From Escherichia coli (lineage in GTDB: Bacteria; Pseudomonadota; Gammaproteobacteria; Enterobacterales; Enterobacteriaceae), in the NCBI RefSeq assembly GCF_046105845.1, contig NZ_CP151004.1: a DNA stretch of 64,000 nt, one strand, 5' to 3'. The notes beneath the pieces are model-generated. The model made no database searches, was not told where the DNA came from, and was given only the letters and a program-made list of their open reading frames with translations. Shown here piece after piece: positions 27,660 to 32,743 of this stretch (the stretch's first letter is position 1; every line of letters begins with the position of its first letter). A program made the translations under genes and the position numbers.

Positions 27660-29201
27660 ATGGCTTTTGCCTCATTAATTGAACGCCAGCGCATTCGCCT
27701 GCTGCTGGCGTTATTATTCGGTGCCTGCGGAACGCTGGCCTTCTCTCCTTACGATGTCTGGCCTGCGGCGATTATTTCGCTGATGGGGCTTCAGGCGCTG
27801 ACCTTTAACCGCCGTCCACTCCAGTCTGCCGCTATTGGCTTTTGCTGGGGATTTGGCCTCTTTGGCAGCGGTATTAACTGGGTCTATGTCAGCATCGCGA
27901 CTTTTGGCGGAATGCCTGGCCCGGTTAACATCTTCCTGGTGGTGCTGCTGGCGGCGTATTTGTCGCTGTATACCGGACTGTTTGCTGGCGTGCTGTCGCG
28001 CCTGTGGCCGAAAACCACCTGGCTGCGCGTGGCGATTGCCGCCCCTGCTCTCTGGCAAGTGACCGAGTTTCTGCGCGGTTGGGTGCTGACTGGTTTCCCG
28101 TGGTTACAGTTCGGCTATAGCCAGATTGATGGCCCGTTAAAAGGGCTGGCACCAATAATGGGCGTGGAAGCCATTAACTTCCTGCTAATGATGGTTAGCG
28201 GCCTGCTGGCACTGGCGTTGGTCAAACGCAACTGGCGTCCGCTGGCGGTGGCCGTCGTGCTGTTCGCCCTTCCCTTCCCGCTGCGTTACATCCAGTGGTT
28301 TACCCCGCAACCGGAGAAAACCATTCAGGTTTCGATGGTTCAGGGCGATATTCCGCAATCACTGAAATGGGACGGAGACCAGCTTCTTAATACGCTGAAG
28401 ATTTACTACAACGCAACGGCACCGCTGATGGGCAAATCATCGTTGATTATCTGGCCGGAGTCGGCGATAACCGATCTGGAAATTAATCAGCAACCGTTCC
28501 TCAAAGCACTGGACGGTGAGTTGCGCGATAAAGGTAGCTCGCTGGTAACCGGGATTGTTGACGCGCGTCTCAATAAGCAGAACCGCTACGATACTTACAA
28601 CACCATCATCACGCTGGGGAAAGGTGCGCCGTACAGCTACGAATCAGCCGATCGCTATAACAAAAACCATCTGGTGCCGTTTGGCGAGTTTGTCCCGCTG
28701 GAGTCGATTCTGCGTCCGTTAGCGCCGTTCTTTGATCTGCCGATGTCGTCGTTCAGCCGTGGGCCATATATCCAGCCACCGCTGTCGGTAAACGGTATTG
28801 AGCTTACTGCGGCTATTTGCTACGAGATCATTCTCGGCGAGCAAGTGCGTGATAACTTCCGCCCGGATACCGATTATCTGCTGACTATCTCCAACGATGC
28901 ATGGTTTGGTAAGTCTATTGGTCCATGGCAGCACTTCCAGATGGCGCGAATGCGTGCGCTGGAGTTGGCGCGCCCGCTACTGCGTAGCACCAACAACGGC
29001 ATTACGGCGGTGATTGGTCCGCAGGGTGAGATTCAGGCGATGATCCCGCAATTCACCCGCGAGGTGTTAACCACTAACGTGACGCCGACTACCGGACTTA
29101 CACCGTACGCACGTACCGGCAACTGGCCTCTGTGGGTGCTGACGGCACTGTTTGGTTTTGCTGCTGTGCTGATGAGTCTGCGTCAGCGACGTAAACGTTG
29201 A
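27660..29201 (+). CDS. lnt: Apolipoprotein N-acyltransferase Lnt (about 512 aa)
   Basis: [37 protein letters not shown]..., multi-TM N-terminus, CN-hydrolase domain. Confidence 0.95.
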
Positions 29202-29214
29202 GGTGAATGATGCG

Positions 29215-29249
29215 CTGGCCTGCAAAATTGCATCATTTTTGCAGGCCAG
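29215..29249. repeat. Perfect 13-bp inverted repeat just downstream of lnt
   Basis: CTGGCCTGCAAAA-ttgcatca-TTTTGCAGGCCAG; no U-tract on either strand. Confidence 0.6.
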
Positions 29250-29304
29250 ATAAACCGTTAACACCGCATCCGGTATCAACAAAACATACTTTCTCATTAA
29301 GCGG

Positions 29305-29332
29305 TGGGGCGTGATTATCATGCCCCTTTTTT
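29305..29332 (+). terminator. Rho-independent terminator (plus-strand orientation) abutting the stop of the minus-strand rhomboid gene
   Basis: GGGGCgtgattatcatGCCCCtttttt. Confidence 0.55.
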
Positions 29333-29333
29333 C

Positions 29334-31211
29334 TTACGGTTCAGGGATACAAGCCACATTGCCATATTGGGGATGACGAATAATTGCCTGCGGATCAAGC
29401 GAGCGCGTCCTGTCCAGTTGGATTAACCCGTTCTTCGCCATAACAAATATTTTTCTACCATCCGCTGAAAAACGAAGGTGATTAACGTAGCTGGCAGGAT
29501 AAACGCCAATAATCTGCCCGGCATTAATATTGAGCTGGATGACATAACCTTGCAGGCCATATGACACCAACGCTAAATATTGACCGTCCGGGCTAATACC
29601 CTCAACGGAATAAACGCTCCTGCTACACCATTGCGTCATAATACTGGCTTGTTGATCCTCAGCTCTTATACGTGAAATCCCCTGGCTATCGGCAAAAATA
29701 ATCTCTCCATTTTTTGGTCGGAATCCCATCGCAGAAACGACACCACGCGCATCACCTGCGGGAAAGTCTTCTTTCTGATGCGTGATGGTATTGATGCGTA
29801 CAATGTCACCTCTGACCATACCGGGTATCAACAATGTTTTTTCATCCGGGGAAAGTGCCATAACCCAGGCACCAGGTTTATTACTCGTCCCCGTCCCGTC
29901 GTATTTCTCCAGCGGGATATCCGCCACATGCTGATAAGTCACCAGATCAATGGCTGACACACTATTACTGGTGCGATTCATCACCCAAGCTTTTGTGCCA
30001 TCACGCGAGAGGATAAGACTGTCAGGATGTGCACCGGTGGTAATCGACTGAATAATCTCCCCCGTCGCCACGTTAATGACCGATAACGCATTCGCTTCAA
30101 ATGAAGTCGCATAAAGCAACGTTTCATCCGGGCTTAGCGCCAGCGATCTGACGCCCTGATCTTTACAGCCACCACAATGTTTGACTGACTTTTCTTTCGC
30201 TATGGGGGCTGTAAAGGTATGCAGGATTTTCTTTTGTCCGAGGTCGAAAACAACAATGCTGTTGGTGTTTTCAATTGCGGCATACAACGTATTACCATCC
30301 CGACTGATCGCCATATCATGGATATCGGAAATCTCAGCGAGCAAATCACCACTGGCCTGTTCACGACTTACCGGAGCGGATAATGTTTCCCTGAGGGCGT
30401 TGCGTTCCTCCGCTAACTGCTGCTTTTTTTGCCGTCGCTCTTGTTCAATCTCCTGTGGATAAAACTCTTCACGCAGGCTTTGCCTGACTTGTAAAACTGA
30501 CTCACCCATCTGCTGCTGCGCAAGCCAGATAGCCCCGGTCAGAAGAAGACTACCCGCAACAATAATCCCGCCTTCCGTAACAAGCCGGTTTTGCCCATAT
30601 AAACGCGCACTCAGCCCCCCCATCGCGCCACCCGCAATCAGGCCGCCAATGTGGCAAGCGTTATCTATTCCTGTTTGCCGGGCACCGTACAACAGTGTCA
30701 GCGCCACCATACCCAGCAGAGGAAATACTCGCCGCTGGTTTTTATGGTGTGTGCCCGCACCTGAAGCAAGCTGTGTTGCTATCGCAGCGCCAGCTATTCC
30801 CATAATCGCCCCGGATGCCCCAACGCTGATGACTATCTGCTCACTTTCGCGTAACGCATAACAGGCACTGATTAGCCCACCAAAGACGCCGGAGAATAAC
30901 CAGATAATCAGAAGTCGCCATTTCCCCAGTATCCGCTCCGCCACTGCCCCCACCACCAGAAGTGCAAACATATTCATCAGCAAATGGGGAAAACTACTGT
31001 GCAGAAAGACACTGCTCAATAAGCGCCAGGATTCGCCCGACAACGTGAGAGAAGTAACGTTAGCACCGAGATGGATGAGTGCGGATTGATCGACTTCTTC
31101 ATAACTCATCCATTGTGCGAGGTAACAAAATATCCCAACACAGAGCGCAAAAAGGATAAGGGTTATTGCGGGTAATTGAACATTTAACGGCTTAACCGAA
31201 GATGCAGACAT
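29334..31211 (-). CDS. Rhomboid-family intramembrane serine protease (7 TM) fused via a charged linker to a C-terminal YVTN/YncE-like beta-propeller (625 aa); not a gene I recognise from E. coli K-12
   Basis: Single 625-codon ORF. N-terminal residues 1-235: rhomboid motifs WR (62-63), HxxxN (H76, N80), GASG with catalytic Ser133, ACHIGG with His187, plus seventh hydrophobic helix 216-232. Residues 240-285 charged (EEFYPQEIEQERRQKKQQLAEERNALRE). Residues 286-625: about seven repeats of [LI]S[PR]DG..[LI]...N......[IV]D-type beta-strand blades. Confidence 0.85.
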   Translation of the reverse strand: MSASSVKPLNVQLPAITLILFALCVGIFCYLAQWMSYEEVDQSALIHLGANVTSLTLSGESWRLLSSVFLHSSFPHLLMNMFALLVVGAVAERILGKWRLLIIWLFSGVFGGLISACYALRESEQIVISVGASGAIMGIAGAAIATQLASGAGTHHKNQRRVFPLLGMVALTLLYGARQTGIDNACHIGGLIAGGAMGGLSARLYGQNRLVTEGGIIVAGSLLLTGAIWLAQQQMGESVLQVRQSLREEFYPQEIEQERRQKKQQLAEERNALRETLSAPVSREQASGDLLAEISDIHDMAISRDGNTLYAAIENTNSIVVFDLGQKKILHTFTAPIAKEKSVKHCGGCKDQGVRSLALSPDETLLYATSFEANALSVINVATGEIIQSITTGAHPDSLILSRDGTKAWVMNRTSNSVSAIDLVTYQHVADIPLEKYDGTGTSNKPGAWVMALSPDEKTLLIPGMVRGDIVRINTITHQKEDFPAGDARGVVSAMGFRPKNGEIIFADSQGISRIRAEDQQASIMTQWCSRSVYSVEGISPDGQYLALVSYGLQGYVIQLNINAGQIIGVYPASYVNHLRFSADGRKIFVMAKNGLIQLDRTRSLDPQAIIRHPQYGNVACIPEP

Positions 31212-31368
31212 AAGGTGTTTCTTCCTTGAAAAGACAGGTAAAAAGCATTTTTCCCGTGTGCAGTTATCATCCCGGCAAACGTCCCATGCCGAAAAGATAA
31301 CTCTGTCCGAAATATGACTTTTTCAGCCTAAAATTACAATCGTAATTAATTCATCCCTAAGTATTTTT

Positions 31369-31384
31369 TGGCATGTAAGTTGCT
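31369..31384 (+). promoter_or_regulatory. Candidate sigma54 (-24/-12) promoter directed toward gltI
   Basis: TGGCATgtaagTTGCT: GG and GC elements at the consensus spacing of TGGCACG-N4-TTGCA. Confidence 0.4.
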
Positions 31385-31451
31385 TTATTTACTGTGTAAG
31401 CAATGAAATCAGCCGCGACGCAACCGGGTTGCACCACCACAAATCAGCGGT

Positions 31452-31468
31452 AGCACCAAAAAGGTGCA
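31452..31468. promoter_or_regulatory. Candidate NtrC (GlnG) enhancer site in the rhomboid-gltI divergent region
   Basis: aGCACCAaaaaGGTGCA matches TGCACCA-N3-TGGTGCA at 15 of 17 positions; further GCACC/GGTGC half-sites at 31430-31436 and 31491-31496. Confidence 0.45.
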
Positions 31469-31665
31469 GTTTAAGAATTTTGCTTCGGAATGGTGCGGCG
31501 CAACTCGCAAAAACAAACAATAAAACAGCAATATCTTTACATTTAGCCAAACTAAATGTTACCTAACAGGCACAACACTGCACAATAAAGTTGCAGACGA
31601 TAACAACACAAACACTCACAACGGGTATCCATGCGTTCTTAACGCAGAAGATAAAGGAGTTGGAT

Positions 31666-32574
31666 ATGCAATTACGTAAACCTGCCACAGCAATCCTGGC
31701 CCTGGCGCTTTCCGCAGGACTGGCACAGGCAGATGACGCCGCCCCGGCAGCGGGCAGTACGCTGGACAAAATCGCCAAAAACGGTGTGATTGTCGTCGGT
31801 CACCGTGAATCTTCAGTACCTTTCTCTTATTACGACAATCAGCAAAAAGTGGTGGGTTACTCGCAGGATTACTCCAACGCCATTGTTGAAGCAGTGAAAA
31901 AGAAACTCAACAAACCAGACTTGCAGGTGAAACTGATTCCGATCACCTCACAAAACCGTATTCCACTGCTGCAAAACGGCACTTTCGATTTTGAATGTGG
32001 TTCTACCACCAACAACGTCGAACGCCAAAAACAGGCGGCTTTCTCTGACACTATTTTCGTGGTCGGTACGCGCCTGTTGACCAAAAAGGGTGGCGATATC
32101 AAAGATTTCGCCGATCTGAAAGGCAAAGCCGTAGTCGTCACTTCCGGCACTACCTCTGAAGTTTTGCTCAACAAACTGAATGAAGAGCAAAAAATGAATA
32201 TGCGAATTATCAGCGCCAAAGATCACGGTGACTCTTTCCGCACCCTGGAAAGCGGTCGTGCCGTTGCCTTTATGATGGATGATGCTCTGCTGGCTGGTGA
32301 ACGTGCGAAAGCGAAGAAACCAGACAACTGGGAAATCGTCGGCAAGCCGCAGTCTCAGGAAGCCTACGGTTGTATGTTGCGTAAAGACGATCCGCAGTTC
32401 AAAAAGCTGATGGATGACACTATCGCTCAGGTGCAGACCTCCGGTGAAGCGGAAAAATGGTTTGATAAATGGTTCAAAAATCCCATTCCGCCGAAAAACC
32501 TGAACATGAATTTCGAACTGTCGGACGAAATGAAAGCACTGTTCAAAGAACCGAATGACAAAGCACTGAACTAA
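31666..32574 (+). CDS. gltI: Glutamate/aspartate ABC transporter periplasmic binding protein GltI (302 aa)
   Basis: ORF 31591..32574; ATG 31666 preceded by AAGGAG gives MQLRKPATAILALALSAGLAQA... signal peptide. Confidence 0.95.
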   Translation: MQLRKPATAILALALSAGLAQADDAAPAAGSTLDKIAKNGVIVVGHRESSVPFSYYDNQQKVVGYSQDYSNAIVEAVKKKLNKPDLQVKLIPITSQNRIPLLQNGTFDFECGSTTNNVERQKQAAFSDTIFVVGTRLLTKKGGDIKDFADLKGKAVVVTSGTTSEVLLNKLNEEQKMNMRIISAKDHGDSFRTLESGRAVAFMMDDALLAGERAKAKKPDNWEIVGKPQSQEAYGCMLRKDDPQFKKLMDDTIAQVQTSGEAEKWFDKWFKNPIPPKNLNMNFELSDEMKALFKEPNDKALN

Positions 32575-32577
32575 TTA

Positions 32578-32731
32578 CAAGAACCAGGGGCGGAAATTCC
32601 AGCCCTCTCGATTGTTACGTAGCACGGACAGACTATACGCCTGATGGTCGTTCCCCATCGGGCCTGAAAACCGCAATACGCTGGGTAACAATCTTCGAGG
32701 GTAGCAGTTAACGCTGCTACCCTCTTTTTTC
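32578..32731 (+). ncRNA. sroC: SroC sRNA (GcvB sponge) processed from the gltI-gltJ spacer
   Basis: Conserved gltI-gltJ intergenic region ending in terminator GGGTAGCAGttaacGCTGCTACCCtctttttt; position matches the known SroC locus. Confidence 0.6.
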
Positions 32732-32743
32732 TGGAGTAGATTT

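Follow-up and report, generated by a model that had tools for sequence, protein, structure and literature searches.

The closest described system to the gene considered here is the rhomboid protease SSON_0610 of Shigella sonnei, named 'Rhom7' for its seven predicted transmembrane domains (TMDs) (Liu et al. 2020, EMBO J 39:e102922; PMC7232013). Phobius gives seven TMDs for this S. sonnei orthologue; the wild-type protein cuts a TatA-TMD reporter, and the S133A and H187A mutants are inactive (PMC7232013). The seventh transmembrane (TM) helix and the C-terminal domain are not needed for an artificial model substrate to be cut (PMC7232013). Over-expressed from a plasmid, Rhom7 also cuts the TM anchors of HybA, HybO and FdnH, though HybA and FdnH only as orphans outside their complexes and only when the TM contains a proline; the anchors cleaved in orphan HybA and FdnH are single C-terminal TMs in which the helix-breaking proline is needed (PMC7232013). 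A 2025 review lists Rhom7 as UniProt Q3Z4D6, with HybA/HybO/FdnH-type substrates as published. Here we describe the Escherichia coli counterpart, the gene rhom7, in a stretch of 64,000 nucleotides (contig NZ_CP151004.1 of assembly GCF_046105845.1) that is referred to as the window.

Other known systems resemble parts of the protein. Bacillus subtilis YqgP/GluP and Staphylococcus aureus ActH, like Rhom7, combine a rhomboid core with a seventh TM helix that exports a protein-binding repeat domain. They bear three extracytoplasmic tetratricopeptide repeats (TPRs) where Rhom7 bears a seven-bladed propeller reached through a helical linker, they possess an N-terminal cytosolic regulatory domain that is absent from Rhom7, where only about 14 residues precede TM1, and they are found in Firmicutes rather than in Proteobacteria. 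The TPR domain of ActH binds and activates LytH, which sets a precedent for protein binding by the outer domain of a 6+1 rhomboid, and that of YqgP is predicted to bind a ligand. E. coli GlpG shares the rhomboid fold and catalytic dyad with Rhom7, and both cut orphan HybA in Shigella, but GlpG has six TMs, carries an N-terminal domain in the cytoplasm and lacks a periplasmic one, and its sequence similarity to Rhom7 is weak. For the C-terminal domain, the best parallels are the S-layer YVTN propeller of Methanosarcina mazei (1l0q) and E. coli YncE. Both share with Rhom7 the seven blades and the 40-residue YVTN repeat, but the Rhom7 propeller differs from them in being tethered to a membrane protease and in having two family-specific cysteine pairs.

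The gene is a single uninterrupted open reading frame (ORF) of 625 codons on the minus strand, with its ATG at the 31211 end and no internal stop, just as had been read from the DNA at the outset. Judged by sequence, it is the E. coli orthologue of the inner-membrane rhomboid serine protease S. sonnei Rhom7 (SSON_0610). The encoded protein is 93% identical to proteins labelled as S. sonnei and sits in a cluster, drawn at 90% identity, whose 8814 sequences include copies from E. fergusonii and S. flexneri; one S. sonnei-labelled protein (P0013), also 93% identical, is the sole member of a separate 90% cluster. The numbering of Ser133 and His187 and the prediction of seven TMDs, followed by a C-terminal domain, agree with those published for SSON_0610; the difference between the two proteins would be allelic or orthologous only, amounting to about 6-7% of residues. 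Ser/His-dependent cleavage of a TM substrate is on record for the S. sonnei orthologue only. An identical protein is already recorded at NCBI as an E. coli rhomboid family protease, and RefSeq, with the product name 'rhomboid family intramembrane serine protease', annotates the gene as a single copy in 3237 of 5426 complete E. coli genomes (about 60%). The original prediction, made from the DNA letters and a list of ORFs, had called this the only unassignable gene in the window. That claim fails, since Rhom7 is an already known and experimentally characterised protein (PMC7232013), and the S133A, H187A, TM7 and C-terminal deletion constructs then suggested have already been made for its S. sonnei version (PMC7232013). 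The find is thus the re-discovery of a published protein and adds little alone; the interest that remains lies in an unstudied propeller, in an accessory and fast-evolving gene, and in distant relatives' type VI secretion system (T6SS) toxin neighbourhood. The parts of the gene are as follows.

29334-31211, minus strand: rhom7 coding sequence, 625 codons plus stop (29334-29336), from the ORF list; RefSeq has the same coding sequence in other E. coli
30507-31211, minus strand: residues 1-235, six-TM rhomboid core plus seventh TM helix, from PF01694, AlphaFold2 helices and the match to 2nr9
30813-30815, minus strand: codon of catalytic Ser133, in GASG (131-134) of TM4, from the motif and its invariance in 16 family members
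30651-30653, minus strand: codon of catalytic His187, in ACHIGG (185-190) of TM6, from the motif and its invariance in 16 family members
30513-30587, minus strand: seventh TM helix, residues 209-233, from a hydropathy peak, the preceding SARLYGQNR and an AlphaFold2 helix
30357-30506, minus strand: charged helical linker, residues 236-285, from composition and AlphaFold2 helices
29337-30356, minus strand: seven-bladed YVTN/YncE-type β-propeller, residues 286-625, from TIGR02276, 1l0q (by sequence and by fold) and AlphaFold2
30165-30176, minus strand: Cys346-Gly-Gly-Cys349, the first of two conserved cysteine pairs, on the loop that runs from blade 1 to blade 2
29625-29627, minus strand: codon of Cys529, likely disulfide partner of Cys621, in 14 of 16 aligned sequences
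29349-29351, minus strand: codon of Cys621, close to the C-terminal end; the residue is conserved in 90% or more of the sequences and does not vary within the distant subgroup

The rhomboid assignment is firm. Residues 59-199 match Pfam family PF01694 with E=1.4e-27, and when the motif positions were recomputed, every predicted hallmark proved to lie at the residue originally proposed: the WR of loop 1 (62-63), H76 and N80 of the TM2 HxxxN motif (HLLMN, 76-80), Ser133 and His187. All of these are invariant across 16 aligned relatives. An AlphaFold2 model was built from 16 family sequences, with a mean predicted local distance difference test (pLDDT) score of 81.9. It places membrane helices at 15-34, 74-95, 97-122, 132-149, 152-178, 184-203 and 209-233; the six helices of the core are where expected, with pLDDT mostly 80-90, and residues 13-205 align to GlpG structures. 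Sequence comparison of the core with the PDB finds Haemophilus influenzae GlpG (2nr9) at E=1.2e-9 and E. coli GlpG chains at E values of about 2e-4. Two named rhomboid classes were considered and rejected. The NCBIfam equivalogs of GlpG score 41.8 bits against a cut-off of 250 and 37 against 335, and the N-terminal cytoplasmic domain is missing; the rhombosortase model TIGR03902 scores 46.6 bits against a cut-off of 84. With scores so far under the curated cut-offs, Rhom7 is neither GlpG nor a rhombosortase.

The additional helix proposed to follow SARLYGQNR is borne out by a hydropathy peak at 210-228 as well as by the AlphaFold2 helix at 209-233. Loop 1 contains no K/R and four D/E, and the TM2-3, TM4-5 and TM6-7 loops contain two, three and two K/R, respectively. 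These charges obey the positive-inside rule and so favour a topology with the N-terminus inside and the C-terminus outside. The 6+1 arrangement with an extracytoplasmic C-terminal domain, the feature that characterises GluP, YqgP and ActH, is accordingly predicted for Rhom7 as well, in keeping with the periplasmic C-terminus first suggested. The linker was expected to be charged and helical and is so, with nine K/R, 11 D/E and AlphaFold2 helices at 237-250 and 253-276. It ends in a conserved P-x-P-V-x-x-E-x-A-x-G motif leading into the propeller, of which V281, A286 and G288 are invariant. No TPR repeats matched in the C-terminal part, where the domain is a propeller. The parallel with YqgP/GluP, drawn originally from architecture, nevertheless gains support from sequence: outside its own family, the next-closest relatives of the rhomboid core are GluP-type rhomboid-plus-TPR proteins, with 33-44% identity over the core.

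The two model searches proposed with the original prediction, for a rhomboid in the N-terminal part and for YVTN repeats in the C-terminal part, both gave matches, the latter with the repeat model TIGR02276 at 58.3 bits (cut-off 27.85). The same PDB entry, 1l0q, is the propeller match by sequence (E=1.1e-24) and the top Foldseek match in the PDB by fold (E=7.6e-16), followed in the fold search by G-β subunits, the β subunit of hydrazine synthase and Lp49. We take 1l0q, the G-β subunits and the hydrazine synthase β subunit to be seven-bladed propellers. In the AlphaFold2 model, 28 strands form seven four-stranded sheets, the last of which is completed by strand 289-292 together with the C-terminal strand; the blade count comes from the predicted secondary structure rather than from coordinates. 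Most ten-residue blocks of the propeller have mean pLDDT of 80-96, with dips around 341-350 (46), 431-450 (64 and 53), 461-470 (69) and 481-490 (61). About seven YVTN-type repeats had been read from the sequence. The seven-bladed fold stands, but only blades 2-3 (approximately 352-440) are canonical YVTN repeats by sequence, aligning to 1l0q with E=1e-7 per repeat, and blades 1 and 4-7 have diverged past sequence recognition. Orthology with YncE was rejected, since the equivalog NF052280 scores 34 bits against a cut-off of 400, and the Rhom7 propeller is thus a relative of YncE by fold but not its orthologue.

Two pairs of cysteines are conserved in the propeller. The CGGC motif at 346-349 was correctly spotted but wrongly placed in blade 1, as it lies in the loop between blades 1 and 2, where residues 342-348 form a long stretch of low pLDDT. 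A CxxC or Cx3-4C pair is found at this site in 14 of 16 family members. In two Klebsiella aerogenes orthologues (P0038 and P0039) both cysteines have been lost together, along with part of the loop (about 343-352), and the C529/C621 pair is kept. Cys529 is replaced or missing in P0036 and P0047, and is invariant in two subset alignments that omit these two sequences. A disulfide between Cys529 and Cys621, which seems likely from the alignment, would tie the tail of the protein to blade 5/6. That the members of a pair are kept or lost together fits the formation of disulfides in the periplasm.

The propeller fold of the Rhom7 C-terminal domain appears to be absent from the literature searched. 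Neither Liu et al. 2020 (PMC7232013) nor the 2025 review uses the word 'propeller', the former does not identify the C-terminal domain as a β-propeller, and a full-text literature search found no paper treating a bacterial rhomboid together with a β-propeller domain. Domain databases and RefSeq, on the other hand, already tag the C-terminal propeller. Four entries in the AlphaFold database (AFDB), A0A376KY81, A0A484VT88, A0A484VRC0 and A0A376LJY3, are fragments of the E. coli Rhom7 propeller labelled 'Outer membrane protein' in UniProt/AFDB; the label is apparently a wrong one for a periplasmic domain that is anchored to the inner membrane.

A mechanism can be proposed on this basis. The N-terminus would be cytoplasmic and TM7 would put the linker and propeller in the periplasm, where the two cysteine pairs may form disulfides. 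Sitting above the periplasm-facing active site, the propeller would serve as a platform to which proteins bind, choosing or retaining the periplasmic portion of client membrane proteins, while the rhomboid core would cut the client TM helix and license further degradation. Taking the evidence together, we consider it very probable that the window gene is a Rhom7 orthologue with a periplasmic propeller serving as client-binding platform, and a fast-evolving accessory gene. Because the propeller is well predicted and has two conserved cysteine pairs, its part in substrate choice is directly testable.

Several points weigh against this reading. The orthology is deduced from S. sonnei-labelled proteins (93% identity) and from matching residue numbers, not from the SSON_0610 sequence, and the topology is a prediction. 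Since Rhom7 without its C-terminal domain still cuts the artificial substrate, the propeller is not needed for catalysis, and its role in substrate selection is something that we infer; the published deletion, assayed on the artificial substrate only, may nonetheless be compatible with a role of the propeller in substrate choice or in gating, such as the ligand- or substrate-gated proteolysis put forward at the outset. When Rhom7 was expressed natively, cleavage of HybA or FdnH could not be detected (PMC7232013), and a double rhomboid mutant had no growth phenotype (PMC7232013), which suggests that the physiological substrates may be others. Finally, a promoter scan found no sigma-70-like promoter upstream of rhom7 on the coding strand.

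The distribution of the gene within E. coli is patchy. Essentially full-length copies number 3232 among the annotated genomes, with nucleotide identities to the window of 94-99%. K-12 MG1655, as originally thought, has no rhom7, which explains why the gene was not recognised when the sequence was first read. Counterparts of window positions 28800-29195 (the end of lnt) and 31421-32000 (upstream of gltI) exist in K-12, and the intervening 29196-31420 is swapped there for about 155 bp of unrelated sequence. An IS5D element is also inserted in K-12 upstream of gltI, at the equivalent of window 31562-31566. Because this insertion is distinct from the replaced segment and lies about 140 bp past it, IS5 did not simply delete rhom7 and was rejected as the cause of its loss. 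In another strain, E. coli O15_8X (NZ_CM182542.1, 3210586-3213239), rhom7 is split by IS1, and in RefSeq each half has a product name of its own, 'rhomboid family intramembrane serine protease' for one and 'beta-propeller fold lactonase family protein' for the other.

The gene is strain-variable and fast-evolving. Among four E. coli alleles, the ratio of non-synonymous to synonymous substitution rates (dN/dS) is 0.11-0.22 for rhom7, with the rhomboid and propeller parts about equal, against 0.006-0.08 for lnt and 0-0.04 for gltI at comparable dS. Purifying selection on rhom7 is evident from these values but is much weaker than on its neighbours. The order lnt-rhom7-gltI recurs in K. aerogenes and in one other enterobacterial group. 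Between E. coli and K. aerogenes the rhomboid-propeller proteins share 50% identity (51% in the propeller, 47.5% in the rhomboid core) compared with 83-95% for Lnt, GltI, GltJ and CorC. Such variability and speed of change are unlike those of a housekeeping quality-control factor. In K. aerogenes, a two-partner secretion pair comprising a TPS-domain exoprotein and a ShlB-type transporter lies just past gltL (L003, 1-1997), with no counterpart seen in the E. coli loci examined.

Full-length rhomboid-propeller relatives are few among the matches listed. Those at 50-57% identity are enterobacterial and syntenic, and those at 25-35% are scattered over at least Budvicia, Uliginosibacterium, Paraburkholderia, Trinickia and several metagenome bins. 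AFDB holds look-alikes from Paraburkholderia silviterrae and Phytopseudomonas daroniae, and a Variovorax protein that is shorter (528 residues, TM-score 0.31-0.36) and has a weaker rhomboid match. The species distribution is a lower bound, as the matches listed in the genome scan with the full-length family alignment were mostly ordinary rhomboids; a search of representative sequences with the C-terminal domain was swamped by giant YVTN-repeat proteins matching blades 2-3. A set of 5.8 billion proteins, searched with a profile from the family alignment, yielded no further full-length member. A metagenome scan led by a T6SS-linked member produced two new distant full-length loci (L095 and L096), with no T6SS genes nearby, the remainder being of E. 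coli type. The Budvicia homologue (L009 3676-7754; L004 2676-6754) divergently adjoins a conserved trio of unknown genes encoding 417, 481 (DUF6384) and 459 residues, with no NCBIfam match. PADLOC defence models gave no matches for the window protein and two distant relatives.

When neighbouring ORFs were compared all against all, the only shared neighbours were the enterobacterial lnt-gltI synteny and a module of VasX and ExIF genes; most family members lie in unrelated gene contexts, with L006/L007 and L023 as the exceptions. The T6SS-linked rhomboid-propeller loci are as follows.

L006, 1141-8195: rhomboid-propeller within a complete T6SS gene cluster
L023, 496-8823: rhomboid-propeller following a T6SS effector and three ExIF genes
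L011, 313-4266: rhomboid-propeller adjoining TssF

The order of genes in L006/L007 is PAAR, a 953-residue VasX_N effector, two ExIF genes, the rhomboid-propeller, a DUF4123/Tla1-like adaptor, an unknown gene, TssM and TssA. In L023 the rhomboid-propeller is preceded, on the same strand, by a 921-residue BTH_I2691-family effector (NF041559, E=3e-159) and a tandem of three ExIF genes. Identities between L006 and L023 are 25.6% for the rhomboid-propellers, about 25% for the effectors and 28-35% for the ExIF proteins, so the effector/ExIF/rhomboid-propeller module is conserved over deep divergence. A third distant relative, L011, adjoins TssF. In the ExIF proteins, a soluble N-terminal part is combined with two to three TM helices. 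A similar architecture is that of Tki5, a membrane immunity protein by which Tke5, a pore-forming toxin of the BTH_I2691 family, is neutralised in the inner membrane (PMC13133200). In the window, rhom7 has lnt and gltI for neighbours and no adjacent T6SS effector. This toxin neighbourhood is a lead from two or three loci, all in distant relatives and none in E. coli, and it fits more than one reading. The rhomboid might remove toxin helices that have entered the membrane, as a proteolytic form of immunity, or the proposed quality control might act on orphan members of a toxin-immunity membrane complex.

The first of these ideas can be extended to the whole family, as proteolytic second-line immunity or clean-up against VasX/BTH_I2691 pore-forming toxins. 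The propeller would bind the incoming toxin, or the immunity partner that the toxin has in the membrane, the core would cut the helices inserted into the inner membrane, and the E. coli/Shigella gene would be an orphan immunity gene. We regard this as unlikely, both for the family and for its E. coli member. It would account for the position of the L006 and L023 full-length relatives directly 3', on the same strand, of a VasX-family effector and two to three tandem ExIF genes, an association kept at only 25.6% identity between the rhomboid-propellers and about 25% between the effectors, for the Tki5-like TM helices of the ExIF proteins and for the adjacency of L011 to TssF. The strain variability of rhom7, its dN/dS of 4-10 times that of its neighbours and its 50% identity to the syntenic K. 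aerogenes copy, compared with 83-95% for flanking genes, also point this way. However, in about ten further lineages, among them every enterobacterial one, no T6SS gene lies close by, the known Rhom7 substrates are respiratory-complex subunits with no toxin among them, dN/dS is still well under 1, and the sample is small at two or three loci. The literature searched contained no paper linking rhomboids with T6SS or VasX, and the T6SS immunity proteins TsiV2 and Tki5 act by binding rather than by proteolysis. Were the idea nevertheless true, it would add a novel form of toxin defence and give a bacterial rhomboid a physiological task, a long-open question; the absence of rhom7 from K-12, the usual laboratory prey, would have masked the effect. 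Similarly doubtful, in our estimation, is a protease-independent role for the propeller of the kind known from S. aureus ActH, in which it would switch on some enzyme or complex of the periplasm, or act as its scaffold, while the core served mainly as an anchor or had a separate job. The ActH TPR domain alone activates LytH, the rhomboid part being dispensable for that phenotype, the Rhom7 propeller is dispensable for cleavage of the model substrate, and the propeller by itself is under purifying selection (dN/dS 0.10-0.18). Yet the neighbour-ORF comparison shows no conserved partner gene adjoining the family, the propeller has diverged about as fast as the core (51% identity to K. aerogenes in the former, 47.5% in the latter), and the invariance of the catalytic residues across the family implies that protease activity has also been kept.

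Two further explanations treat the gene as decaying or as an artefact. Decay of rhom7 in E. coli, as a barely expressed or functionless accessory gene on its way to loss, could be read into its absence from 40% of complete genomes including K-12, into native expression too low for detectable cleavage and a mutant without phenotype (PMC7232013), into its occasional disruption by an insertion sequence (IS), as in O15_8X, and into the lack of a promoter-like site in the scan. It is, even so, very improbable, given that the gene is full length in 3232 genomes, has a dN/dS of 0.11-0.22 at neighbour-like dS and occupies the same locus in several enterobacterial genera, and that conservation of the catalytic residues and of both cysteine pairs extends to relatives at 25% identity. 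The possibility that the ORF is an artefact, with separate rhomboid and propeller genes joined by a sequencing or assembly frameshift, was also anticipated at the outset. Separate fragments do occur among database entries, some called 'outer membrane protein' and others 'beta-propeller fold lactonase family protein', but the split entries coincide with an IS insertion (O15_8X), a single ORF of 619-627 residues is intact in thousands of independent assemblies, and relatives at 25-57% identity share its length and domain order. The frameshift or two-gene explanation is rejected and is almost certainly wrong. The VasX/Tke5 (BTH_I2691) effector-immunity loci, which two distant relatives of Rhom7 directly follow, have no equivalent beside E. 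coli rhom7.

In its own locus, rhom7 stands alone between two genes: lnt (27660-29201), to which it is convergent, and gltI, from which it diverges. Its flanking elements are as follows.

31221-31227, minus strand: Shine-Dalgarno-like AAGGAAG, 9 nt 5' of the rhom7 ATG, by direct reading of the sequence
29306-29326, strand unassigned: GC-rich hairpin directly 3' of the rhom7 stop, from a terminator scan and direct reading

With a run of A on one side and of T on the other, the hairpin may be a shared terminator of the convergent lnt and rhom7 genes. Also between these genes are a 16-bp inverted repeat (CTGGCCTGCAAAATTG / CATTTTTGCAGGCCAG, window 29215-29249), just past the lnt stop, and a sequence resembling a repetitive extragenic palindrome, GATACCGGATGCGG...GGCCTGC. 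On the other side of rhom7, the ORF list starts gltI mechanically at a TTG (31591), where RefSeq genomes use an ATG at the equivalent of 31666, 25 codons downstream (MQLRKPATAIL...). Further on, the small RNA gene sroC (Rfam RF00369, 174.8 bits) lies on the plus strand at window 32570-32732, between gltI and gltJ as in K-12.

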